Source of the DNA: an uncultured Hyphomicrobiales bacterium | Lineage (GTDB): Bacteria > Bacteroidota > Ignavibacteria > Kapaibacteriales > UBA2268 | Length of the DNA: 64,000 nucleotides | Direction: 5' to 3' | NCBI GenBank assembly: GCA_964465945.1 | Contig: CAYXMM010000002.1 | Location: forward strand, 319,098 to 383,097 | Shown: piece by piece, positions 3,497 through 33,069 of the stretch | How the letters are laid out: each line of letters opens with the position of its first letter | Position numbering within the stretch: the first letter of the stretch is position 1 | Program-made: the position numbers and the translations under genes | The notes under the pieces: generated by a model | Told to the model about the DNA's origin: nothing | The model's database searches: none | The model's input: only the letters and a program-made list of their open reading frames with translations

Positions 3497-3698
3497 TGCA
3501 AAAAAACGATTATGGAATATAGAACGGAATAATATCAATAAATATTCTAAAATATTTGGATTAATCAAAGTAAATATAGATTTACTAAAGTTTTACTTCT
3601 TATAATTGTCAGGCAATTTAAAGAAGATATACTTTTAGACAGAAAAAGGGCAAACGTTGTTAATTGTATTTTAATGAAAATTGATAAGGATTATGAAT

Positions 3699-4334
3699 AT
3701 GAATGAAAATTTAGAGTTGTTAATTAAAGATGTATATGCTGGATTAGAATTATTGCCACCCGATTTACAAGGGTGGAATGGTAATGACATCATTTTTGAA
3801 GAATTGATTGTAAAAACAGGACCTAAGTTAATTATTGAAGTTGGAACTTGGAAAGGACAATCGGCTATTAATATGGGTAAATTAATCAAACTTTATAATT
3901 TAGATTGTAAGATTATTTGTATTGATACGTGGCTCGGTTCGTTAGAGTTTATAGACGATACAAGTCAAGAGCGTAATTTACATAAGAGAAATGGTTATCC
4001 AACTATTTATTATCAATTCTTATCTAATGTAGTTCACAATGATTTGCAAGATGTAATAATTCCTTTACCTATAGACAGCCGAAATGCTTTTAGATATTTG
4101 CAAAAGATTAAGATTAAAGCCGATTTGATTTATATAGATGGTTCGCACGAGTATAATGATATTTATGATGATGTAAGTAATTATTATAAATTACTAACGG
4201 ATAAAGGCGTTATTTTTGGAGATGATTATAATAAAGCAGAATGGATTGATGTAGTAACTGCAGTTAATACATATTGTAACCAAAACTACAAAAATTTGGT
4301 AATTAAAGATAGGTTCTGGATAATCAAAAATTGA
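3699..4334 (+). CDS. Class I SAM-dependent methyltransferase (Methyltransf_24-like)
   Basis: IEVGTWKGQS, CIDTW, IYIDGSH, GDDY motifs; ATG 3699 sits 8 nt after AAGGA. Confidence 0.85.
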   Translation: MNENLELLIKDVYAGLELLPPDLQGWNGNDIIFEELIVKTGPKLIIEVGTWKGQSAINMGKLIKLYNLDCKIICIDTWLGSLEFIDDTSQERNLHKRNGYPTIYYQFLSNVVHNDLQDVIIPLPIDSRNAFRYLQKIKIKADLIYIDGSHEYNDIYDDVSNYYKLLTDKGVIFGDDYNKAEWIDVVTAVNTYCNQNYKNLVIKDRFWIIKN

Positions 4335-4793
4335 TTATCTAGTTAAGAAAGAGGCAATGACTTCATATATTTCCTCTAAATCGTCGGGTGATAATACAAT
4401 AAATGGACGTGCAGGTATTGATTTAGTTCCAAATTGATGAAATATAGAATATGGAGCATTGCTAGATATATAAATTTGATTATTTGAATGACCTACTTCT
4501 ATGTTCCTTTTAAGGTTACCTGTTCGGTATAAAATTGGAGTAATACCTAATCTGGAATTTGAGTAACTTTTAATAGTAGAATTACTTAGTTTAGCCCATT
4601 TTTCAGTACCACCTGAAAATAGGTCTATTTTAGAAGCGTTACCGTTCCAAGCACCTTGTAAATCAAAATTACGATTTATAATTTCAGAGATTAGTGCTAC
4701 TACATGAGGAAGCACTAAATTTAACTTAATATCGTCTCTAATTTCAGTAAGAGTTATATTAATTTTTTTAATAATATTATCGGAATTTAGCAT
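4335..4793 (-). CDS. Phage virion morphogenesis protein (Mu gpG-like)
   Basis: PILYRTGNLKRNI, YSIFHQFGT, IPARPF motifs; likely ATG at 4793 (the ORF-track extension to 4910 looks like shadow). Confidence 0.85.
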   Translation of the reverse strand: MLNSDNIIKKINITLTEIRDDIKLNLVLPHVVALISEIINRNFDLQGAWNGNASKIDLFSGGTEKWAKLSNSTIKSYSNSRLGITPILYRTGNLKRNIEVGHSNNQIYISSNAPYSIFHQFGTKSIPARPFIVLSPDDLEEIYEVIASFLTR

Positions 4794-4794
4794 A

Positions 4795-4971
4795 ATGGCA
4801 GAATCTTTAAATAATGAAAAAAAACCTATTTCAATGGGAGAACGTTGGCAAAGCGATATTAAAAGCATTTCCATAATGATAGAAAAGCAAGAAGAAAAAC
4901 CCAAAATCACAAAAGAGATAAGAGAATATTTTAAAAAAGAGTTTGGAGTTACTCTTTTGGATAATAAATGA
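4795..4971 (+). CDS. Unannotated 58-aa antisense ORF, candidate immunity protein of MuF-ART
   Basis: ATG 4795 to TGA 4969-4971, MAESLNNEKKPISMGERWQSDIKSISIMIEKQEEKPKITKEIREYFKKEFGVTLLDNK; A-rich plus strand unlike the T-rich flanks. Confidence 0.6.
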   Translation: MAESLNNEKKPISMGERWQSDIKSISIMIEKQEEKPKITKEIREYFKKEFGVTLLDNK

Positions 4972-6340
4972 GTGTAGCATAAAGAGTTTCAACATCTCTT
5001 TCTACTGGTTTTTTTCCTGTAATTTTAGTCATATCTGTTTTAACTTTTTTTTCTTTTATTAAATTAGTAACGTAAAAGCTTGAATTTGGTCTAAAAAGGA
5101 ACTCTTTTTCAAAATCACTTGCTACTCCTAACTTAGAACCTTTACCTACTTTAATCGTCATAAATATGCTATCCGCCCTATCATTATTAATATTAGCATA
5201 ACTTAATGAAATATCTTTTGAAGATGAGGCACTTAGAAAGGCTTTTTCTATAAATATTCCACTTTCTAAATCTTTTAAGATATTTAAATAGTCGTTAGTA
5301 AAACCTTCTGGGAAAAACATTCCACGATATAATAGTATGCTATGATTTAATTCATAACTTAAATCACCCTCTATGATTGTATTTGTTTTTTTAATATATT
5401 CATCTGTTAGTGATTGGTCGTCATTTGTTCCCCTTAACACTCTATTATATTTATCGTATGCTTCTCCCGCATATTCTTTAATACAATCTTTAACTTCTGG
5501 TTTTAAAGTTTCAAGATAATTAACACTTATATCTTTATATTCTTCATTAGACAATTCTTTAAATAAAATTTTGCTAAACATATTAATTAAATCCTCTTTA
5601 ACTTTATCTGGATACTGGCTTAAATCAGGTTTAAAATCTTCGGTAATTTTAAGTCCGTCTTTTTTGGTTTGATTTAATTGCTTCTTAAAAACATCGTCAT
5701 TACTTAAACGCTTTAAAAAATCATTTCCATTCTCAATTTTGATGCCCTCGTTATCTACTTCTTTTTGACTTAATGAACGGACAGAGCATTTGCAACCAAA
5801 TCGAGAGGGTGGATAGAATGTAGACCAGAAAGGATCATCATAAGGCAATACTTTGCCATAAAATTGTCTATGAAAATCGTTTTTTTCAGCCGATGTAGAG
5901 GCAATGTATTTCAAGTAAGGTCTAATACCAGATTTGCCTAATCTTTGTTGATGCTCATATTGTCCTTTTGCATAAGCAATATTCAAATTAGTTTCATAAA
6001 CAACTTTCAACCGATTTTCAGTTAATTTAGTTAATTTCCTTAATTCTTCGGTATCTTCTAAAAATTCGGTTAATGTTTGCCCTTTCTTTTTTGCTTCTTC
6101 AAGTTTATCATAAATTGCTTTAAGCATATCAGCCGAATGAATACCAGCCACCGTGAATGCTTGGTTGTGTGCTTTGGTGCTCATCTCTTGCCAATTAACC
6201 GTAGTTTTAAGATTTTTACCTTTATTTCGTAAATATTCAAGTTGTTTTTCGGGCTTCATTGTTAAGAGTTCTTTCATTATTTTATCTTTATCGAACTCAC
6301 TAAAAGCCAGGTTCAACATTTTTTTACTAAATATCCGCAT
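4949..6340 (-). CDS. MuF (gpF/SPP1 gp7-like) head protein fused to C-terminal VIP2-like ADP-ribosyltransferase
   Basis: N-terminal VYETN...AYAKG, YPPSRFGCKCSV; C-terminal YxxYNRVLRG, LYRG, FLSASS, FEKE (R-S-E). Probable ATG 6340 after GGGGGT. Confidence 0.9.
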   Translation of the reverse strand: MRIFSKKMLNLAFSEFDKDKIMKELLTMKPEKQLEYLRNKGKNLKTTVNWQEMSTKAHNQAFTVAGIHSADMLKAIYDKLEEAKKKGQTLTEFLEDTEELRKLTKLTENRLKVVYETNLNIAYAKGQYEHQQRLGKSGIRPYLKYIASTSAEKNDFHRQFYGKVLPYDDPFWSTFYPPSRFGCKCSVRSLSQKEVDNEGIKIENGNDFLKRLSNDDVFKKQLNQTKKDGLKITEDFKPDLSQYPDKVKEDLINMFSKILFKELSNEEYKDISVNYLETLKPEVKDCIKEYAGEAYDKYNRVLRGTNDDQSLTDEYIKKTNTIIEGDLSYELNHSILLYRGMFFPEGFTNDYLNILKDLESGIFIEKAFLSASSSKDISLSYANINNDRADSIFMTIKVGKGSKLGVASDFEKEFLFRPNSSFYVTNLIKEKKVKTDMTKITGKKPVERDVETLYATLIYYPKE

Positions 6341-7715
6341 TAAATACACCCCCTGCTTGTGAAGCCATTATTGCTGTTTTAAATAATTCTTCGATTTCAG
6401 AACTATCTAAATTTGAGTATCTATTTTCAATTAACTCTCTTGCTTCTTCGATAGTATTAGATTGTGTTATTAACTTAACTGCATAGTTCAACATTTTTTC
6501 ATTTGCTTTAAGTAATGCTTCCATTCCTGTATCGTCTATATGGTCGTGTTCTTCGTCCCCTTCAGTAAATTGAGGTGATGCTGGTGCGGATATTTCAAAT
6601 TCGTCTTCGGCTATACCATAATTTTTTTGAATGTAATTTTTATTAAATTTAATACCTACTTGTGTGGCTAATAGTCCATCTCTTTCAGCTAATATCTTAT
6701 CGACATCTTCTTGTTGATATAATCTAAAACGTGGAATATTAGATATAGTGCCGTAATTTATAGTGTATATTTTCTTAATTAATTCATTAAAAGCGGCTTC
6801 AACCATTTTTTTATCTGATTCAACTACGTCCGACCTTACTTGTAGATGTGTTTGGGACATTGCATAAGAACCGACATCACCTTGCTCCGTTGTTAATGTT
6901 TGTGATAAGATTACTTTCGATAGTTCAGAGTTCCAGAGGTGAATGAAGTCTTTAAATATCATTGGCGAGCTTGCTTTTGTTAAGTCAAGAAAAGTTACAT
7001 CGTCATCAGAATTAGTGACAACTACACCATCATGTCTGGCTTTATCTAAAGTCAATAGTAAATCTTCTGTACTTTTTTCAATAGTGGAGTTGGTTTTACC
7101 ATATAAAAACGGCATGCCATATTTTTCAATATAAGTAAGCCAAAATTTCGTTACATCTTTTTTAAATTTAACTGCCCAAAAACATTTAGAAAGCAATGCT
7201 TCACCGTAAGGATTAGTATAGGTTGCATTATGTTGAAGCAACAAAAATTTATTATTATTACAATAGACTTTTTCATTTTTAGCATTTACAAAATAACCTA
7301 AGTTATTAGAATTAAAAACGAACCAATCACATGGTTTGCCTATTATATCGACAGGTACATAAAAGCCATTGGTTAGTCGCCAATATATTTCAAGATATTT
7401 AAACCCATAAAGAGGGGCTTCCAGCATCTCTGATATTATTCGGTTTATATTAAGATTATTAAATATATTTTTAATAAATTCGTTCTCTCGACTCTCATCG
7501 TCATATAATATCTCCCATTCTAGCGAAAGTACACCAGATTTACGTGATTGAATTATACTCGATAAATGTGGGTCAGTTCTTAAATCATCGTAAGAACTAA
7601 TTCTATTACCTATTTGTCTTAATATTTTGTCTGGATTTGGCAGTTCATTATTAACAAAAGTTTTAAGCCAAGAATGCGATGTATCTCTTACAATTACATC
7701 TAATAAATTATTCAT
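6327..7715 (-). CDS. Portal protein (DUF935 / Mu gp29-like)
   Basis: NPYGEALL, IEKYGMP, ILSQTLTT, GSYAMSQTH motifs. Confidence 0.92.
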   Translation of the reverse strand: MNNLLDVIVRDTSHSWLKTFVNNELPNPDKILRQIGNRISSYDDLRTDPHLSSIIQSRKSGVLSLEWEILYDDESRENEFIKNIFNNLNINRIISEMLEAPLYGFKYLEIYWRLTNGFYVPVDIIGKPCDWFVFNSNNLGYFVNAKNEKVYCNNNKFLLLQHNATYTNPYGEALLSKCFWAVKFKKDVTKFWLTYIEKYGMPFLYGKTNSTIEKSTEDLLLTLDKARHDGVVVTNSDDDVTFLDLTKASSPMIFKDFIHLWNSELSKVILSQTLTTEQGDVGSYAMSQTHLQVRSDVVESDKKMVEAAFNELIKKIYTINYGTISNIPRFRLYQQEDVDKILAERDGLLATQVGIKFNKNYIQKNYGIAEDEFEISAPASPQFTEGDEEHDHIDDTGMEALLKANEKMLNYAVKLITQSNTIEEARELIENRYSNLDSSEIEELFKTAIMASQAGGVFNADI

Positions 7716-7723
7716 ATTTATCC

Positions 7724-9088
7724 CTAATAATTTTTATAATTATCAATTACATTATTAATTTTTCTTTCAAGATTAATTCTAGTTGGTTTATACATTTTAG
7801 ATAATACTTGGAATGCCATAGTCGTAGTATCAACAATATCGTCGTGTTTTCCAGCTGGGAATTGATTATGTTCGTTTAAGAAATCGTCTAAAAATGATTT
7901 ATTCTTGGGTAAGAACACACGACCTGCTTCAATATATGGAGTTGTTGTATGTGCTCTAACCACTTTATCCATTGGAGCAATACCTCTTACGTTTAATTTA
8001 CTCTCACGTCGGAGTATCTGTATTAATGATTTACCACTTCCAGCGTCTTCAATATAGATTACATTTGGTTTATGTTTATCATACTGGTTTTCAGAGGCAA
8101 CTTTTAACTCTGGAAATTGTAATTTGTCTCTAAATAAATCAATTAAATAAAAATTGTCATCATTCCAACCCCAGGTAGCACAAACAGAGTAATCATTTTC
8201 TTTTCCTTTTTCAAAAGCAGTGTCCCAGACTTGTATAACATTGTCAAATTTAATTTCACCTTCATTATAGTATTTCCACCAGTATTTTTGAAATATTTGA
8301 TGCTCATTGTCAACAGGTTGCTGTTGATACATTGCAGAAAAAAAGTAAGAACCGACGGACTTCTTTATTTTTTCAAGTTCAGTAATATTATAACGCTCTG
8401 GGAAAAGGGCTTCACCAACTTTACGATTTAAAACATCGTCATTAGTTGCAATAGCAGGGAAATCGACGACATGCCAGTCGGCAGAAGTTTCACTTGCTAA
8501 TATACGACCTACTAAATCGTCATGATGCCAGCGAGTCATTACTATAATCATAGAGCCGTTAGGTTCTAACCTATTAAATGCAGTAGATTGATACCACCTG
8601 TATACTTTATCTCGATAAACATTACTAAATGCTTCGTCGCTATTTTTTACTGGGTCATCTATTATAAATAAATTTGCACCTTTTCCTGTGATAGAACCTC
8701 CAACACCGACAGCAGTTAAACTACCTTTTCTGTTTTTTATAGTCCAATGGTTATTTCTATCTATACCAACTTCAAGATTTTTCAAATACGAATAATCTTT
8801 AAAGTGTAATTTAGACTTCATAGCCCATTGTTCCGCTAACTCTAATGAATATGAACTTATTATTATCTGGTCATTTGGGCGATTTAAAAGCCACCAAAAA
8901 GGCAAGTATTCTGAAATCAAATGAGATTTTCCGTGTCTTGGTGGCATTGAGACTATCAACCTTTTAATCTCACCGCTATATACTTTTAACAATTTATCTT
9001 CGAGTAATAATAAATGCTCCGCTGGAATATATTCATTATTAGTTCCTTTACTATCCAACATCGCACAATATATTGGAGTGTTTATCAT
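7724..9088 (-). CDS. Terminase large subunit
   Basis: MPPRHGKS Walker A, IIDDP Walker B, WDTA, IED, HDDIVD nuclease motifs. Confidence 0.95.
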   Translation of the reverse strand: MINTPIYCAMLDSKGTNNEYIPAEHLLLLEDKLLKVYSGEIKRLIVSMPPRHGKSHLISEYLPFWWLLNRPNDQIIISSYSLELAEQWAMKSKLHFKDYSYLKNLEVGIDRNNHWTIKNRKGSLTAVGVGGSITGKGANLFIIDDPVKNSDEAFSNVYRDKVYRWYQSTAFNRLEPNGSMIIVMTRWHHDDLVGRILASETSADWHVVDFPAIATNDDVLNRKVGEALFPERYNITELEKIKKSVGSYFFSAMYQQQPVDNEHQIFQKYWWKYYNEGEIKFDNVIQVWDTAFEKGKENDYSVCATWGWNDDNFYLIDLFRDKLQFPELKVASENQYDKHKPNVIYIEDAGSGKSLIQILRRESKLNVRGIAPMDKVVRAHTTTPYIEAGRVFLPKNKSFLDDFLNEHNQFPAGKHDDIVDTTTMAFQVLSKMYKPTRINLERKINNVIDNYKNY

Positions 9089-9516
9089 TTATCTCTTAAC
9101 GTCCTAATAAAATCTTGATATTTTGCTATCTGTTCATCGGTTTTGGGTACTAAACTCAACTCTATGTTATTCTTATTATCAAAACTAACTTCAACTTTAT
9201 CAGTATAACCTCTTTCTTTACCTTTCATCTTCAAGAAAAATTCTATTGCATTGAATTTAATTCTTTCATTTTTAGACCGCATTAGTGAATGTAAACCTTC
9301 CTCAGCCGTATCCATCGCTTCATCCATAATATCCTGTAATACTTCTGGATTATTCAAAGCCCTAATTCTTACTGCTTGTCTTGAATACTCAATATTATAC
9401 TGCTCTCTTATTTTACGAGCAGTTCTTGCAAATATTCCAACGTTTTCTCGTAATACTGAAAAGAACTGTTCGTCGCTTAATTTCACGGGTCTGGATTTAC
9501 TTTTAAGTTTTGCCAT
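9085..9516 (-). CDS. Terminase small subunit (probable)
   Basis: Directly upstream of TerL; AIEFFLKMKGKERGY motif. Confidence 0.75.
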   Translation of the reverse strand: MAKLKSKSRPVKLSDEQFFSVLRENVGIFARTARKIREQYNIEYSRQAVRIRALNNPEVLQDIMDEAMDTAEEGLHSLMRSKNERIKFNAIEFFLKMKGKERGYTDKVEVSFDNKNNIELSLVPKTDEQIAKYQDFIRTLRDK

Positions 9517-9534
9517 AAGTTGTCAATATCTCCT

Positions 9535-10965
9535 TTAAAATTCAGGGATTAACGTTTCAGTATCTAAATTTTCCAAATATGATAAATCTAAAACTGGGAA
9601 GTGTTCAGCTATTTTAGTAGTATCTCCTTTGTAAAAGACCAGTACGTTTTGGTGATGTTTGCCTGCTTTCCTTGATTTACTAAATTGACTACCTACTCTA
9701 ATTGGAAGACTTGCAAGGTGATTAACTAAAATCATTTCATTATATAATGACAAACCTGCCTTCTCAAAGCATTCAATAGTATATGAAACAAAGTTCTTAT
9801 AACTACCATTTTTATTTCTAACATCAGCAACAACGAAAACAGCAAATCTATTTTCATTCAACACCCCGCAGGATTTGTTAATAATATCAAAATAAGTCTT
9901 TTTAAATTCATCGTAAGGCATATTTGACAAATCGGCAGGGTCATCTGAATAAACTTCTAAATCCGCATAAGGAGGGCAGGAGAATAACAAATCAAACTTT
10001 TCGCCTTTAAAAATTTCATCTATGTTTTTACTATCTCCATAAGTCCAAGTTGGTCTTAAATTCTTATTCTTGATAACATCATTAACTTTACTAACTTCTT
10101 CATAATTTTTGATATTTGCCTCTACTTGTTCCTTTCTTAAATCATTACCATAATATTTAAACCCTAATTTAGAAGCAACTATACCTCTCACAGAACCACC
10201 TGCAAAAGGATCTAGTATCTTTCCATTCTGGGTGTTAAACCATAAATAAGATAACTCACATAATACTGGGTCAAAAATCGAAGTTGAGCCATTTTCACCA
10301 CCTAATAGTTTTATCCCTCTTTTCCCTGCCTCTTTAAACACTGAATCTGTATCAGCAGGCAATCCTTTTGCTTTCATCTCATTTTTTAAATCGTAATATC
10401 TTGGTGATTGAGCGGATTTGCCAAATGTCAATCCGCCTTCTCTTCCTAACTCACTTTTAATTCCTAAGTCTAACCACCAGTTCTTTCTTTGTTGCCATTG
10501 TCCTAATTTGGTGTCTAACACTGAAAATGGTGGTATTAAAAACCTGTCAATTAACTTTTTAGGTCTAGCATTAATAAAAGCATCGTCTTCAACTATAAAT
10601 TCTTTTTCTAACTCCAGTCCCCACTCATCTAACAATGTATTATCCCATTCATTTGCGAGTATATCCGTGTCCCATTCTCCATACCCAAGATTATCTTTGA
10701 TTATAAACTCTTTTTTTTGTTCTTCCGTTAAATCATCGGCTTTAATAACATACACTTTCTTATGCCCCGCTTTTTCACAAGATTTCAATCTCATATTACC
10801 ACCAAGTACCATAAAGTTGTTATCAACAACAATAGGTCGTAATTTTAACATCTCTGGGAAATCTTGAATAGATTTAACAAGTTTATCAAATCTATAATCT
10901 TTTATTATTCTTGGATTGTTAGGGTTTGGTTTGACTTGACTAATATCAATTAATTGAATATTCAT
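9535..10965 (-). CDS. ParB-like N-terminal domain fused to DNA amino-methyltransferase
   Basis: KPNPNNPR...PIVVD...GGNMR; ILDPFAGGS motif I followed by SCPPY motif IV. Confidence 0.88.
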   Translation of the reverse strand: MNIQLIDISQVKPNPNNPRIIKDYRFDKLVKSIQDFPEMLKLRPIVVDNNFMVLGGNMRLKSCEKAGHKKVYVIKADDLTEEQKKEFIIKDNLGYGEWDTDILANEWDNTLLDEWGLELEKEFIVEDDAFINARPKKLIDRFLIPPFSVLDTKLGQWQQRKNWWLDLGIKSELGREGGLTFGKSAQSPRYYDLKNEMKAKGLPADTDSVFKEAGKRGIKLLGGENGSTSIFDPVLCELSYLWFNTQNGKILDPFAGGSVRGIVASKLGFKYYGNDLRKEQVEANIKNYEEVSKVNDVIKNKNLRPTWTYGDSKNIDEIFKGEKFDLLFSCPPYADLEVYSDDPADLSNMPYDEFKKTYFDIINKSCGVLNENRFAVFVVADVRNKNGSYKNFVSYTIECFEKAGLSLYNEMILVNHLASLPIRVGSQFSKSRKAGKHHQNVLVFYKGDTTKIAEHFPVLDLSYLENLDTETLIPEF

Positions 10966-11098
10966 TATTAACTCCTTATTTTTTCAAAAATCCGAACAAA
11001 AGAACGGACGACGTGCCGTGTCGTATGGGGCGTCGTATGGTTTGAAGTCCGATATAATCCCTCGAAATTGCAAATAATAAAAATCAAATCCGAAAAAT
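10966..11098. promoter_or_regulatory. Divergent intergenic control region with repeated motifs
   Basis: AAATCCGAA at 10988 and 11086; GTCGTATGG at 11020 and 11032; locally GC-rich. Confidence 0.5.
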
Positions 11099-12775
11099 AT
11101 GTTAAAAACAATCGAAGCATTCAAAGTAGGGGAACATACTGACTCAGCAGGTAATAAAAAAGAATGGACTGCCGAAGAAGCGCAATTCATTACTAAGTAT
11201 TATAATGAAATGTTAGCAAAAGACCCTTCAATGATTGCACCTATATGCAAAGGACACCCGACAGATAATGCCCCTGCTTATGGTTGGGTTAAATCATTAA
11301 GTTTTAATAATAATATTGTAGAAGCAACTATTGACTTCAACGACTCAATGGTTGAAGAAATTAAAGATGGTCAATTTAAAAAAGTAAGTATTGCTTTATA
11401 TGATGATTTGCTATTAAGACATATCGGGATGCTTGGAGCTGCTGCACCAGCAGTTAAAGGACTTCAACCAGTGGAATTTAAAGAAAGGAAAGAAGATTAT
11501 ACGGAATGGACTTTCTCGGAAGAAGTAGAACCACCAAAGGTCAAAGATAGTAAAGAATTATTATTTGAAAGAGAGGTAAAATATGGTATTGGCAGAAAAG
11601 ATAATATTGGGTATATAGATAAACCTACGGCTTATAAAGATGTTATCGATGAAGACTTTGCTGACCCTGTTAATTATCTTTTTCCAATTAACGATGAAGA
11701 GAATTTTATTGCAAGTTATCAAACTTTTAACAATTACGAGACTAGAGAAAGATATAGTCAGATAGAGCAACAAGTTATTAAAACGAGATTGTTAAAAGGG
11801 TTAAAAAAATACAATATAGATGCTAAGGAAGATGCAAGGTTATATAGGTTTTCTGAAAATAGCAATCAATTTACAGGCATCCAATTAAATGATAAACTAA
11901 AAAGAGATAAGCCAGCAATTTACGAAAACTATGTTGAAGCAGATTTTGCTGACCCAGTCCATTTTAGATTTCCAATTAAAAATAGAAATCAAATCCTATC
12001 AAGTATTGCATTAGTTCATAAAGATAATAACGTGAAAGAATATAGCGAGAATGATATGAATATTATTCGAGCAAGGATTATTAATAATGCAATGGCAATA
12101 GGAATAAATCTTAACGGAGATAACTGGAATTATTCAGAAACTAATAATATAAATTTAAAATTTAATAAGGAGTTCAATATGAACGAATGGTTAGAGGCAT
12201 TAAAAGCCTTTGCTATTAAATGGGTAGGTAGTAATGTAAGTGAAGAGATTGCAAGTGAATTTCAAGCAGGCCTCGGGACCTATATAACTGAAAATCCTAT
12301 TCCAAGTGCTACGGCTAAACCAGAGGAAGAGAAACCGCAGTTTAGTGAAAATGAAAAAGCAATGATGAATAAAATCGAAGTTCTTGAAAAGAGAAATCGA
12401 ATTAACGAATATTCAAATTTTGCAGAGAAATTGGTCGTAGAGGGTAAAATTCTACCAGCTGAAAGAGATAATTTGATTCTAACGTTAGAGGCAGTTCATT
12501 CTACCCCTAACAAGATAGAATTTTCGGAGAGTGATAAGACGCAATCTTTAACACCAGTTGAAGCGCTTAAAAATATGTTTAATTCAAGACCAGCAATTCA
12601 CAAACTCGATGTTGAAATTAGCAAAGACGGGAAAGGTGAGGATGAGGGGTTATCTTTCAATGATAAATTAAACAATAAAGTTATTGAATATCGTAAGGAA
12701 ATGGCAAAAGCAGGTAATAACTTAACTTTTGCTGAGGCATTGAATATTGTATTAAATCAAGATAAAGGAGAATAA
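11099..12775 (+). CDS. Mu gpI-like prohead protease with tandem DFADP-domain insertion and C-terminal scaffold
   Basis: KGHPTDNAPAYGWV, KVSIAL, LRHIGMLGAAAPAVKGL; two DFADPV..FPI units; coiled C-terminus. Confidence 0.88.
   Translation: MLKTIEAFKVGEHTDSAGNKKEWTAEEAQFITKYYNEMLAKDPSMIAPICKGHPTDNAPAYGWVKSLSFNNNIVEATIDFNDSMVEEIKDGQFKKVSIALYDDLLLRHIGMLGAAAPAVKGLQPVEFKERKEDYTEWTFSEEVEPPKVKDSKELLFEREVKYGIGRKDNIGYIDKPTAYKDVIDEDFADPVNYLFPINDEENFIASYQTFNNYETRERYSQIEQQVIKTRLLKGLKKYNIDAKEDARLYRFSENSNQFTGIQLNDKLKRDKPAIYENYVEADFADPVHFRFPIKNRNQILSSIALVHKDNNVKEYSENDMNIIRARIINNAMAIGINLNGDNWNYSETNNINLKFNKEFNMNEWLEALKAFAIKWVGSNVSEEIASEFQAGLGTYITENPIPSATAKPEEEKPQFSENEKAMMNKIEVLEKRNRINEYSNFAEKLVVEGKILPAERDNLILTLEAVHSTPNKIEFSESDKTQSLTPVEALKNMFNSRPAIHKLDVEISKDGKGEDEGLSFNDKLNNKVIEYRKEMAKAGNNLTFAEALNIVLNQDKGE
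12179..12775 (+). CDS. Internal in-frame scaffold protein (Mu gpZ-like, 198 aa)
   Basis: AAGGAG 6 nt before in-frame ATG (M361 of the protease ORF). Confidence 0.6.
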   Translation: MNEWLEALKAFAIKWVGSNVSEEIASEFQAGLGTYITENPIPSATAKPEEEKPQFSENEKAMMNKIEVLEKRNRINEYSNFAEKLVVEGKILPAERDNLILTLEAVHSTPNKIEFSESDKTQSLTPVEALKNMFNSRPAIHKLDVEISKDGKGEDEGLSFNDKLNNKVIEYRKEMAKAGNNLTFAEALNIVLNQDKGE

Positions 12776-12777
12776 TA

Positions 12778-13725
12778 ATGTCAAGATTAGATTCATTAGC
12801 AATAAAAGATAATCTTTTAACCAATATTGCGAGAGGTTATAAAGATAACAAATACGTCGGCGAGAATATATTTCCTTTCGTTCAAATGGATAAAGAGACA
12901 GGAAAGTATTACATTTTTAATGATGAGCAGTTCAAACATTATTCAGTGAAGAGGGCGCCAGGAACTCAATCACAAAGAGTTACTACTGAATTAGGCACTA
13001 CTGATACTTATAAGTTAGAGCAATATTCATTAGAAGAAGCCATCGATGATAGAGAGCAAGCAGAAAGTGATGTGCTTAATTTAGAACAGCATATTACAAA
13101 TATGATGTCAAAAAGACAATTGCACGCTTTGGAAATGGAACAAGCAAGCGTAGCAACTAATTTAGCGAATTATAATTCATCTAATAAAGTTACTTTGTCC
13201 GATGATTTTTATAATGAAGCGGCTATTGATTTTGTGATTGAAATCGAAAAGAAAAAAGATATAATCAAATCTTCCATCGCTGAAAATCCTAATACGATTT
13301 TACTCCCTGAAAAGGTATGGAATTTTTTTAAGACTCACCCTATTCTTAAATCATACCTAGTCAATGATTCGACTAAGAAAATCTTAGTTGCACCCGAAGA
13401 ATTTGGCAAATTATTAGGTTTCCAGAATGTGCTTATTGCTTCAGCTTTAAACAAAGTTAGTACTGGCTTGGAGGAAGTTTGGGGTAACAATATTTGGTTA
13501 GGTTATGTAGCACCACGTCCATCAGCACTATCGGCGTCAGAAAAAGAGCCTTCTTTTGGATACACTTTAAGAAAGAAAGGTTCACCTTTAATTGACAAAT
13601 ATAGAGATGAAACTATACAATCTAATATAATTAGATCGAATGATAACTATCAAGTTAAGATAGTAGGGCAAAATGCAGGTTATTTAATTAAAAATCCTAT
13701 AGACCCTGCGGTTTATAGTGCATAA
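12778..13725 (+). CDS. Major capsid protein
   Basis: Follows protease; LTNIARGY...FPFV...GKY..F pattern; 315 aa. Confidence 0.85.
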   Translation: MSRLDSLAIKDNLLTNIARGYKDNKYVGENIFPFVQMDKETGKYYIFNDEQFKHYSVKRAPGTQSQRVTTELGTTDTYKLEQYSLEEAIDDREQAESDVLNLEQHITNMMSKRQLHALEMEQASVATNLANYNSSNKVTLSDDFYNEAAIDFVIEIEKKKDIIKSSIAENPNTILLPEKVWNFFKTHPILKSYLVNDSTKKILVAPEEFGKLLGFQNVLIASALNKVSTGLEEVWGNNIWLGYVAPRPSALSASEKEPSFGYTLRKKGSPLIDKYRDETIQSNIIRSNDNYQVKIVGQNAGYLIKNPIDPAVYSA

Positions 13726-13734
13726 GGTTAAATA

Positions 13735-13902
13735 ATGAGTGAATATAAAGTAATACACCCTTTGAAATATAAGGGTGTAACATACAAACAAGGTGAAATT
13801 ATAGATTTACCTGATGAAGTAGCGAGTAAAGTTTCAATATCAATTATTAAAATTGATGAAGTTATAGAAAATAAATCAAAAAGTAAAAAAGGAAATAAAT
13901 AA
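13735..13902 (+). CDS. Small head-associated protein (55 aa)
   Basis: MSEYKVIHPLKYKGVTYKQGEIIDLP; fills the capsid-to-cement gap, TAATG coupling. Confidence 0.75.
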   Translation: MSEYKVIHPLKYKGVTYKQGEIIDLPDEVASKVSISIIKIDEVIENKSKSKKGNK

Positions 13903-14318
13903 TGAATACATATACAGCAGGATTAATCGACTCGTTCCTTGCTGGAACTGGACACGTAAAAAACAGGTTCTTAGCATTAAACTCAAGCCAAGAAGTTGTA
14001 TTGTGCGGAAGTGGTAAGAAGTCCATAGGCGCAAGCATATTTACTACGACAGCAGGCGACCAAGCACCTGTTATTTTATCAGGGATAGTTCCTATTGAAG
14101 TAGGAGCAGGTGGAATAACAGCAGGCGATTTAGTTACATCTGATGCTTCTGGCAAAGCAATCACAAGAGCGGCTCTATCATTAACCGCAGGTGCAACGGC
14201 AGTAACTTCAAATGCAGCAGCTCCGACTTTACTGGGTGGTAATCTACCGCAAGAGTTAAATGGAATCGCGTTAGAAACAGGTGATGCTGGTGATATTGTA
14301 AGGATATTGCTTAAATAA
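13902..14318 (+). CDS. Capsid cement/decoration protein (DUF2190-like)
   Basis: G/A-rich, GDLVTSDASGKA, GIALE..GDAGDIV pattern. Confidence 0.75.
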   Translation: MNTYTAGLIDSFLAGTGHVKNRFLALNSSQEVVLCGSGKKSIGASIFTTTAGDQAPVILSGIVPIEVGAGGITAGDLVTSDASGKAITRAALSLTAGATAVTSNAAAPTLLGGNLPQELNGIALETGDAGDIVRILLK

Positions 14319-32953: not shown

Positions 32954-32995
32954 CTTCTAACCTATTGGATTAGAATAATCTATAATTTAGTCTTG

Positions 32996-33069
32996 TGGGC
33001 CTGGAGGGACTTGAACCCCCGACAAACGGATTATGAGTCCGCTGCTCTAACCGACTGAGCTACAAGCCC
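32996..33069 (-). tRNA. Host tRNA with CAU anticodon, probably tRNA-Ile2; prophage attachment site
   Basis: GGGCTTGTAGCTCAGTCGGTTAGAGCAGCGGACTCATAATCCGT...GGTTCAAGTCCCTCCAGGCCCA; TAATTTTG promoter-like element at 33107-33114. Confidence 0.92.

Follow-up and report, generated by a model that had tools for sequence, protein, structure and literature searches.

The locus described here raises the question of why a phage minor head protein should end in an ADP-ribosyltransferase (ART), and of how a cell that makes such a protein might be protected from it. The gene lies on the minus strand of the window, by which we mean the whole 64,000-nucleotide stretch of DNA that was analysed, in a run of genes with the order TerS-TerL-portal-MuF-ART-gpG that constitutes a head-packaging module. 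The features of this region are as follows.

9085-9516, minus strand: terminase small subunit, putative (PHROG 2538, weak match)
7724-9088, minus strand: terminase large subunit (PHROG 38 at 3.5e-110)
6327-7715, minus strand: portal gene, Mu type (PHROG 113 at 3.4e-93), directly upstream of the MuF-ART gene
4949-6340, minus strand: MuF-ART gene, 463 amino acids from the ATG at 6340, stop codon at 4949-4951
5780-6118, minus strand: Phage_Mu_F/SPP1 gp7 domain (PF04233), residues 78-190
4952-5566, minus strand: C-terminal ADP-ribosyltransferase module, residues 262-466, a helical N-terminal part followed by a beta core
4335-4793, minus strand: Mu gpG-like virion morphogenesis gene (Phage_tail_S; PF05069, E 7.7e-7; PHROG 26)

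The coordinates 4949-6340 given in the first-pass annotation correspond exactly to the 463-amino-acid version of the gene. ORF calling and translation place the minus-strand open reading frame (ORF) at 4949-6349, with a GTG start; judged from sequence, the true start is likely the ATG at 6340, because the 97%-identical relative P0002 starts at the same codon. Residue numbers here are nonetheless counted from the GTG (466-amino-acid numbering). The start at 6340 overlaps the portal stop by 14 nucleotides, and within the packaging module the gene comes directly after the portal gene, the position that characterizes Phage_Mu_F/SPP1 gp7 minor head proteins. A Portal_Mu annotation is found in related loci too.

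The fusion of a MuF domain to a VIP2-like ART that had been proposed for this protein is borne out by both Pfam domains, which score above their curated cutoffs, and by Foldseek and profile searches, which agree. The MuF half matches PF04233 over residues 78-190 (E 3.8e-13, 50.6 bits versus a cutoff of 29.6), and the protein matches PHROG 220, “minor head protein and DNA pilot,” at E 1.9e-55. Its TIGR01641 score, 39.4 bits, is slightly below the cutoff of 39.65, and the AlphaFold model of the MuF part has low confidence. In a viral structure library, the best matches are Alt-like ARTs and proteins of two domains labeled “head morphogenesis” or “minor capsid.” The layout is MuF, linker, and ART and nothing else; signal peptide, receptor-binding, and translocation domains are all absent.

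The C-terminal module of 205 residues is modeled with a confident fold of the VIP2/C3/Vis type (AlphaFold pLDDT of ~80 to 90 for residues 260-466). Pfam ADPrib_exo_Tox (PF03496) matches residues 277-433 with E 1.7e-7 and 31.2 bits, compared to a cutoff of 23.4; PHROG 802, “Alt-like ART,” matches at E 1.3e-6, and PHROG 26651 also matches, as an Alt-like RNA polymerase ADP-ribosyltransferase. In a profile search with the ART domain, VIP2 (1qs2) was found at E 1.3e-34, Vis at 4e-31, and Tre1 (6drh) at 4e-22. Foldseek with the ART model returned Certhrax, Vis, Plx2A, VIP2, and C3 at E values from 5e-10 to 1e-7 and probability 1.00, with target TM-scores of 0.55 to 0.66 for single-domain chains of ~200 residues and ~0.3 for the two-domain chains of Certhrax and VIP2. 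These profile and fold matches are far above chance level.

The motifs quoted in the first-pass annotation are all present in the translation: LYRG at residues 340-343 (5321-5332), FLSASS at 371-376 (5222-5239), FEKE at 413-416 (5102-5113), and the basic stretch KKVKTDMTKITGKKPVERD at 434-452 (4994-5050). The first three contain the catalytic positions, and the fourth contains a short insertion.

5324-5326, minus strand: codon of Arg342, the NAD-binding arginine of the YRG motif (R in 32/32 ART-domain relatives)
5225-5233, minus strand: Ser373-Ala-Ser375, the S-T-S motif (S373 in 31/32; at 375, S in 28/32 and T in 4/32)
5102-5110, minus strand: Glu414-Lys-Glu416, the ExE of the ARTT loop, arginine-specific type (E414 in 31/32, E416 in 32/32)
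5003-5041, minus strand: insertion of ~13 residues, KTDMTKITGKKPV, the core of KKVKTDMTKITGKKPVERD

The counts refer to 32 ART-domain relatives with identities of only 23 to 40%, among which Y293, N302, and R306 of a helix motif are conserved too. The R-S-E set that had been called intact-looking is thus intact as read from the sequence, and conserved. Since the site is of the R-S-ExE type, we read the ART as arginine-specific and place it, from sequence, in the VIP2/Alt family. The possibility that the domain is catalytically dead, a structural extension of the head protein, finds nothing specific in its favor beyond the modest Pfam score and is barely credible, given intact, conserved catalytic positions and a confidently predicted fold.

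The basic insertion near the C terminus, to which the first-pass annotation had drawn attention, is present there, but it amounts to a low-confidence loop (pLDDT of ~52 in the AlphaFold model) at the tip of the last beta hairpin, with no sign of importance. The KTDMTKITGKKPV insertion is specific to one lineage, being limited to the window protein and P0002/L008 and missing in relatives of 42 to 48% identity. A role as a nucleic-acid-binding or targeting motif is unsupported, as the insertion occurs in only two 97%-identical proteins.

The MuF-ART gene is carried by an integrase-bearing prophage of 53 kb (53.3 kb) inserted at a tRNA-Met gene, one end of which lies in the window.

32995-33069, minus strand: tRNA-Met gene (tRNA search)
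32993-33011: attR core at the tRNA-Met 3' end, consisting of the 19-bp direct repeat TTGTGGGCCTGGAGGGACT (repeat search)

The attL copy of TTGTGGGCCTGGAGGGACT is located 20.3 kb before the window and adjoins the integrase gene; integrase, HTH repressor, and DnaB/replication genes are found in L089. The element is a temperate prophage. The host DnaJ is closest to those of “Ca. Kapabacteria,” Kapaibacteriota, and Ignavibacteria, and the host is therefore a member of the FCB group, as had been supposed. Against 50,697 phage records, neither megablast with positions 4000-14000 of the window nor tblastn with the ART domain gave a match, and the full MuF-ART protein matched phage records through its MuF half only. 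The ART subfamily is rare, with 40 matches among 1.84 billion representatives and, within the class, occurrence in 2 of 201 genomes.

Between the ART gene and gpG is a small ORF that runs in the opposite direction.

4795-4971, plus strand: 58-amino-acid ORF, candidate immunity (ART inhibitor) gene

The ORF shares 23 nucleotides with the 3' end of the ART gene and starts 1 nucleotide from the gpG start codon. Its place and orientation are kept in six loci (the window, L002/L003, L004/L009, L005, L008, and L093) that represent five distinct phages, so that every one of the five phages recovered from the clade has a homologous ORF at its MuF-ART locus. Its dN/dS is 0.2 to 0.5, and the protein is predicted to form two helices. 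Searches with it of Pfam, NCBIfam, PADLOC, and PDB sequences gave no match, and no known immunity protein was detectable among them. Orphan copies of the gene are found elsewhere in chromosomes, for example, at L092. From these sequence comparisons, the ORF is probably the immunity gene of the ART.

The published criterion for MuF immunity genes is a downstream ORF of <150 amino acids (Jamet et al. 2017, PMC5576092); the 58-amino-acid ORF is immediately downstream and co-varies with the ART, but it is on the opposite strand. A promoter scan found the Bacteroidota -7 motif TAnnTTTG neither enriched nor present just upstream of the ORF, and a scan for sigma-70-type promoters gave chance-level results; no terminator was found between the plus-strand methyltransferase gene and the ORF. 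The arrangement, on the opposite strand, back to back with gpG, and without a recognizable promoter, is atypical for immunity genes. In other MuF-ART lineages (L016 and L006), this slot is taken by a small ORF that shares the strand of the toxin gene, and these two ORFs are only weakly alike (E 0.006). A faint T-x-E-E/Q...EF resemblance raised the possibility that they are homologs of the Kapaibacterial ORF, for which hhalign gave no support (probability of <2%).

Comparison of loci suggests that the ART and the small ORF move together. Across five distinct loci their identities co-vary (100/100, 57/64, and otherwise 31 to 39/27 to 45% for ART/ORF), and the identities of the portal, the MuF N-domain, and gpG remain at 46 to 66% across the loci compared. 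The window and L008 have 0 mismatches over the 58-amino-acid ORF and ART (4800-5599), a block bordered on both sides by hyper-divergent sequence.

5600-5999: hyper-divergent tract in the MuF/ART linker, 50 mismatches versus L008, left border of the identical block
4400-4799: hyper-divergent tract in gpG, 30 mismatches versus L008, right border of the identical block

The closest relative with MuF only, L010 (Kapabacteria), stops at the ART junction; a small ORF is lacking there, and the stop codon overlaps the start of gpG. The ORF is missing where the MuF protein has no ART domain. A related MuF protein, L012, has a different C-terminal extension of 320 amino acids, and P0009 and P0017 are examples of other Pfam domains on related MuF proteins. 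Related phages therefore show the polymorphism expected of MuF toxins, with alternative C-terminal domains or none. The ART and the 58-amino-acid gene would then form one exchangeable toxin-antidote cassette, set between the MuF core and gpG.

The architecture, the fold, the active site, and the portal-adjacent prophage context together thus make the locus a member of the MuF polymorphic-toxin class. Our preferred explanation, which we hold to be reasonably probable, is that the protein is a minor head protein of a temperate tailed phage bearing an arginine ART and accompanied by a 58-amino-acid inhibitor. By analogy with the literature on MuF/gp7 and T4 Alt, the MuF domain would dock a few copies on the portal within the procapsid, and, by extension from SPP1 gp7, Mu F, and T4 Alt, it is expected that the protein would exit the capsid together with the DNA. 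Once inside a newly infected cell, the ART, if it behaves like its analogs, would use NAD+ to ADP-ribosylate arginines of one or more host proteins. An effector ejected with the DNA, as in the first-pass annotation, is what the literature commonly proposes for MuF toxins (PMC5576092, PMC9503650). Comparative genomics suggests that the small two-helix protein may be a non-enzymatic, Bsi-like inhibitor. It could protect the producing or lysogenic cell, a role we propose for it because the genome has no enzyme that would reverse the modification: neither ADP-ribosyl hydrolase (PF03747) nor macrodomain (PF01661) was found in the whole 2.94-Mb genome, in searches whose positive controls fired in 7 and 8 of 14 genomes.

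The MuF-ART architecture has already been described (Jamet 2017; Iyer 2022; EFV; Bxa with Bsi and BAH). In the survey of Jamet et al. 2017, ARTs made up 14% of 191 MuF toxins (PMC5576092). Like the toxins of that survey, including EFV of Enterococcus faecalis V583, the protein described here has MuF1 (PF04233) followed by a toxin domain, and the phage is temperate, with the gene just after the portal gene and a small ORF downstream. Unlike them, it has a small ORF that is convergent and fills the slot before gpG, and it belongs to a Kapaibacteria-like FCB host, whereas those toxins were overwhelmingly from Firmicutes. Bxa, from a Bacteroides stercoris prophage, is an antibacterial MuF-ART neutralized by Bsi and BAH (PMC11699363). 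It too is a head-module protein of a Bacteroidota-group host, with an N-terminal MuF domain, a C-terminal ART with a catalytic glutamate, and small adjacent genes. Bxa, however, has 869 amino acids and a middle domain, compared to 463 amino acids and only a linker here, and its two-immunity system includes BAH, with no BAH-like hydrolase in the present genome. Bsi is a small non-enzymatic inhibitor, a role that we propose for the 58-amino-acid ORF; the candidate inhibitor here is on the opposite strand.

The protein has its fold and R/S-T-S/ExE site in common with R-S-E clade ARTs of solved structure, namely VIP2, Vis, Certhrax, Plx2A, C3, and the enzymatic components of iota toxin and CDT, at sequence identities of only 14 to 21%. 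The ExE version found here is that of arginine-specific members such as Vis, VIP2, and iota Ia. Those proteins, in contrast, are secreted, act on eukaryotic cells, and have their own delivery domains or partner proteins. In the Serratia type VI secretion (T6SS) pair Tre1-Tri1 (6drh), an antibacterial arginine ART that belongs to the profile family of the present domain is neutralized by a dedicated immunity protein, but Tre1 is delivered by a PAAR/T6SS route rather than in a phage head. Tri1 is a large ARH-type protein, compared to the 58-amino-acid helical protein here.

Fusion to MuF, with probable packaging in heads, is seen in many Alt/VIP2 ARTs (Iyer et al. 2022, PMC9503650), and T4 Alt itself falls, by profile and fold, in the ART family of the present protein and shares the proposed logic of a head-packaged enzyme injected with the DNA. 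The MuF-ART could be an Alt-like takeover enzyme rather than a toxin. [quoted passage not shown] The matches to PHROGs 802 and 26651 and the Alt-like proteins among the structural neighbors speak for this, as does the suggestion of Jamet et al. that MuF toxins of the ART type may have only moderate toxicity and may help to steer the choice of lysogeny (PMC5576092). We judge it unlikely, since T4 Alt has no partner gene and the small gene here is linked to, co-varies with, and is co-inherited with the ART and also exists as orphan copies, and since Bxa, a MuF-ART of Bacteroidota, is promiscuous and lethal to bacteria (PMC11699363). T4 Alt also differs in being packaged by a capsid-targeting sequence, with no MuF fusion, and in belonging to a virulent myovirus.

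Release by prophage lysis of an exotoxin that acts on neighboring organisms and not on the newly infected cell, with MuF merely its historical carrier, is very unlikely. Bxa has been reported to act on host epithelial cells once released (PMC11699363), and the closest solved structures (VIP2, Vis, Certhrax, and C3) are secreted toxins; against this, the protein lacks a signal peptide and receptor-binding and translocation domains, and its gene is embedded, with overlap, in the portal-gpG late operon. Slighter still are the chances that the domain works mainly as an NAD+ glycohydrolase or counter-defense enzyme that destroys NAD+ or NAD-derived immune signals on entry and does not modify a protein. 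ART-fold NADases such as Tne5 are known in polymorphic toxins (PMC13285283) and phage NAD/ADP-ribose enzymes frequently counter host immunity (PMC9503650), but the full R/S-x-S/ExE set, like the VIP2/Vis/Tre1-like profile, is characteristic of enzymes that modify protein arginines, and no feature of the MuF-ART specifically suggests NADase activity.

Returning to the preferred reading of a MuF toxin with a small inhibitor, we put forward tentatively an extension of it that we consider possible but doubtful: that the ART and its antisense 58-amino-acid gene are a mobile toxin-antidote cassette, which would give Kapaibacteria a kin-discrimination or superinfection system delivered by the capsid. 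The antidote would be read against the late operon and could therefore be produced in a lysogen while the head genes are silent. If this is correct, resident prophages and chromosomes with orphan copies, such as that of L092, would neutralize only the matching virion-delivered ART of incoming related phages, and the 58-amino-acid proteins would be a new family of very small ART inhibitors that need no hydrolase as backup.

The main value of these results is one of annotation. They extend the MuF-toxin class, known at first mostly from Firmicutes and later from Bacteroides, to prophages of uncultured Kapaibacteria, and they define a rare, divergent ART subfamily of the VIP2/Alt type. The more useful lead is the tightly linked 58-amino-acid gene on the opposite strand. 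If its product is an inhibitor, it would be among the smallest known ART immunity proteins, and it would mean that immunity genes for phage toxins can hide antisense within late operons, a position that evades searches for a small ORF downstream as well as many gene callers.

The MuF-ART gene is a single open frame with a GTG at its 5' end; the ATG at 6340, which also serves as the start in the 97%-identical relative P0002 and overlaps the portal stop by 14 nt, is the probable true start and yields 463 aa, exactly the extent (4949-6340) given by the first-pass annotation. Its proposed order, a MuF domain followed by a VIP2-like ADP-ribosyltransferase (ART) domain, was borne out by Pfam searches, in which Phage_Mu_F (residues 78-190, E 3.8e-13, 50.6 bits against a cut-off of 29.6) and ADPrib_exo_Tox (residues 277-433, E 1.7e-7, 31.2 bits against 23.4) both exceeded their thresholds. 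In PHROGs, the protein matched phrog_220, "minor head protein and DNA pilot" (1.9e-55), and phrog_802, "Alt-like RNA polymerase ADP-ribosyltransferase" (1.3e-6). The three motifs and the basic stretch quoted earlier were all located in the translated protein, numbered here from the GTG at 6349 (466-aa numbering):

4949..6349, minus strand: MuF-ART open frame, GTG at 6349
residues 340-343 of MuF-ART: LYRG
residues 371-376: FLSASS
residues 413-416: FEKE
residues 434-452: basic stretch

On the minus strand lie, in order, a putative TerS, TerL, a Mu-type portal, MuF-ART, and a Mu gpG-like morphogenesis gene (Phage_tail_S); the plus strand then carries protease-scaffold, major head, neck, tail, and tape-measure genes. 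The bacterial genome measures 2.94 Mb, and the window is part of its contig 2; chromosomal genes, including DnaJ and a PBP, are found from ~33 kb on. Upstream of the window, at a distance of 20 kb, are a tyrosine integrase, an HTH repressor, and AAA_24, helicase, and DnaB replication genes. A 19-bp direct repeat, TTGTGGGCCTGGAGGGACT, present at the tRNA-Met 3' end (window 32993-33011) and again beside the integrase (G000:C2:298806 in the host genome, locus L090, 20.3 kb before the window), delimits a 53.3-kb prophage, whose last gene before attR is the 2090-aa tape-measure gene. The putative small terminase gene contains another sharp mosaic junction of the head module, at 9200-9399, with 45 mismatches in 200 nt relative to L008, the locus of the 97% relative. 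The FCB-group host proposed earlier is supported, since the host DnaJ is nearest to Ca. Kapabacteria, Kapaibacteriota, or Ignavibacteria proteins (55-64% identity) and the nearest MuF-only relatives from named genomes come from Kapabacteria and Ignavibacteria.

The ART fold on which the earlier reading depends is predicted with confidence. AlphaFold, given eight homologues, modelled residues 260-466 well (pLDDT ~80-90) and the MuF half poorly. Every Foldseek match in the PDB was an R-S-E clade ADP-ribosyltransferase (Certhrax, Vis, Plx2A, VIP2, C3bot, C2-I, or CDTa; E-values 5e-10 to 1e-7), with target TM-scores of 0.55-0.66 for single-domain chains of ~200 residues and ~0.3 for Certhrax and VIP2, whose chains have two domains. 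A profile of the window domain and eleven stand-alone relatives, run against solved structures, matched VIP2 (1qs2, 1.3e-34), Lmo0066 (1e-31), the arginine-specific Vis (4e-31), and the antibacterial T6SS effector Tre1 (6drh, 4e-22). We aligned 32 ART domains with a mutual identity of just 23-40%: R342 and E416 are kept in all 32, S373 and E414 in 31 each, and residue 375 is S in 28 and T in 4; the Y293, N302, R306 helix motif typical of the ART family is also kept. The ExE form, as opposed to QxE, marks the arginine-specific type. Since the catalytic positions of the predicted R-S-E site are conserved in this form, the domain looks catalytically competent.

The basic insertion noted earlier near the C-terminus is present, and evidence that it is anything more than a lineage-specific loop was not seen. 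It comprises ~13 residues (KTDMTKITGKKPV, 437-449) that are extra relative to 42-48% identical relatives and common only to the window protein and P0002, and in the model it caps the last beta hairpin (pLDDT ~52).

The window locus is not a new system, because the MuF-ART architecture is common and known from earlier work. The definition of temperate-phage MuF toxins comes from Jamet et al., who took EFV of E. faecalis as the studied example and counted ARTs as 14% of 191 toxins (PMC5576092), and Iyer et al. reported that many Alt/VIP2 ARTs carry a MuF fusion and are probably packaged in the head (PMC9503650). The nearest ART-domain relatives tested are also MuF-ART fusions, and the top matches in a viral structure library are two-domain "head morphogenesis" or "minor capsid" proteins. 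The window's ART subfamily itself is rare: we found 5 close full-length relatives among 5.8 billion clusters, 40 matches to the ART domain among 1.84 billion representatives, one full-length relative in 185,579 species genomes, and, in a sample of 201 genomes from the class, 2 that carry the subfamily, both of the host's own genus. Among ART-domain relatives (P0026, P0034, P0040, and P0045), several carry a tandem ART pair within a single polypeptide, some after a MuF-like N-terminus, and others sit inside giant polyvalent proteins of 3,000-7,000 aa. In an Ignavibacteria prophage (L012:5899-7599), a related 566-aa MuF protein has a different C-terminal extension of ~320 aa, with no Pfam match and no small ORF after the gene; this may be another divergent toxin domain, since it contains CYRGL and a GTYAA-like stretch.

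Between the MuF-ART gene and gpG lies a small gene, copies of which occur elsewhere as follows:

4795-4971, plus strand: small ORF, 58 aa, filling the 157-nt gap from the ART stop to the gpG start
L002/L003, L004/L009, L005, L008, and L093: loci with the small ORF in this slot, opposite strand
L092:1103-1321: intact orphan copy, followed closely by a conserved lipoprotein gene (~215 aa)
L091:2084-2254: frameshifted orphan copy, followed closely by a conserved lipoprotein gene (~215 aa)

It overlaps the 3' end of the ART gene by 23 nt, and a distance of 1 nt separates its start from the gpG ATG. In the window's clade, all recovered MuF-ART loci have an opposite-strand ORF of 56-72 aa in the same slot. 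The encoded proteins are homologous (34-49% identity among distinct phages, with invariant positions; the window protein is 100% identical to that of L008 and 74% to that of L093), the dN/dS is 0.2-0.5, and the prediction is of two helices without a membrane segment. Slot conservation, homology, dN/dS, and predicted helices are evidence that this is a real gene. L093:1153-1800 holds an ART 3' end, the small ORF, and a gpG that matches as two pieces in different frames directly adjoining a host aminotransferase gene; this arrangement may reflect a prophage end in decay or a faulty assembly. In the window, a Methyltransf_24 gene (3681-4334, plus strand) closes the plus-strand small-gene block and converges on gpG (4335-4793, minus strand) with no spacer, as also in L004, L005, and L008; a terminator-like site was looked for between the Methyltransf_24 gene and the small ORF and none was detected, and transcripts reading through would be antisense to gpG and continue into the small ORF.

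The small ORF goes with the ART. In the nearest MuF-only phage (L010, Kapabacteria) the MuF stop overlaps the gpG start, leaving neither gap nor small ORF, and tblastn found the ORF in 0 of 80 other MuF loci. Identities of the ART and small-ORF proteins move together (100/100, 57/64, otherwise 31-39/27-45%), while those of the portal, MuF N-domain, and gpG remain at 46-66%. The tract 4800-5599, covering the small ORF and the complete ART domain, is identical to L008 at every nucleotide and lies between divergent tracts (30 mismatches in 4400-4799 and 50 in 5600-5999), so that the two form one inherited block with its edges at the domain junction. In more distant MuF-ART lineages (L006 and L016), the slot is likewise occupied by a small ORF, there encoded on the same strand.

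On these comparisons, we consider the chances that the small ORF is an immunity gene to be evenly balanced. The orphan copies are in other contigs, with no MuF-ART or gpG remnants near them, and immunity genes are known to occur as orphans. Neither an ADP-ribosyl glycohydrolase (PF03747) nor a macrodomain (PF01661) was detected in the whole 100%-complete host genome, although about half of the control genomes carry them, so a binder would be the sole antidote. Against this reading stand the unusual opposite orientation, the failure to recognise a promoter at the small ORF, the lack of similarity to known immunity proteins and to the same-strand ORFs of other MuF-ART lineages, and a sample of five distinct loci.

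Judged by its sequence, then, this MuF protein of a temperate phage carries an intact ART of the arginine type, and a small conserved gene belongs to the same cassette. The first-pass annotation's observation of this protein is confirmed, and its interpretation as an effector injected with the DNA is supported to the extent that sequence analysis allows. If it behaves as the literature on gp7/Mu F and Alt suggests, the protein would enter the procapsid in a few copies through a MuF-portal interaction, exit the capsid with the DNA, and use NAD+ to ADP-ribosylate arginines of host proteins; the comparative data suggest that the 58-aa protein would block the ART in the producing cell or the lysogen. 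The nearest rival is a non-lethal, Alt-like takeover enzyme, in line with the phrog_802 match. Next is an exotoxin freed by lysis, as proposed for Bxa, and acting on eukaryotic cells; Bxa itself, from a Bacteroides stercoris prophage, is a bacteria-killing MuF-ART with two antidotes, the binder Bsi and the hydrolase BAH (PMC11699363). A NADase or counter-defence enzyme fits the conserved active site of the arginine type less well, and a dead ART domain is hard to reconcile with that conservation. The antisense small gene is the most useful lead.
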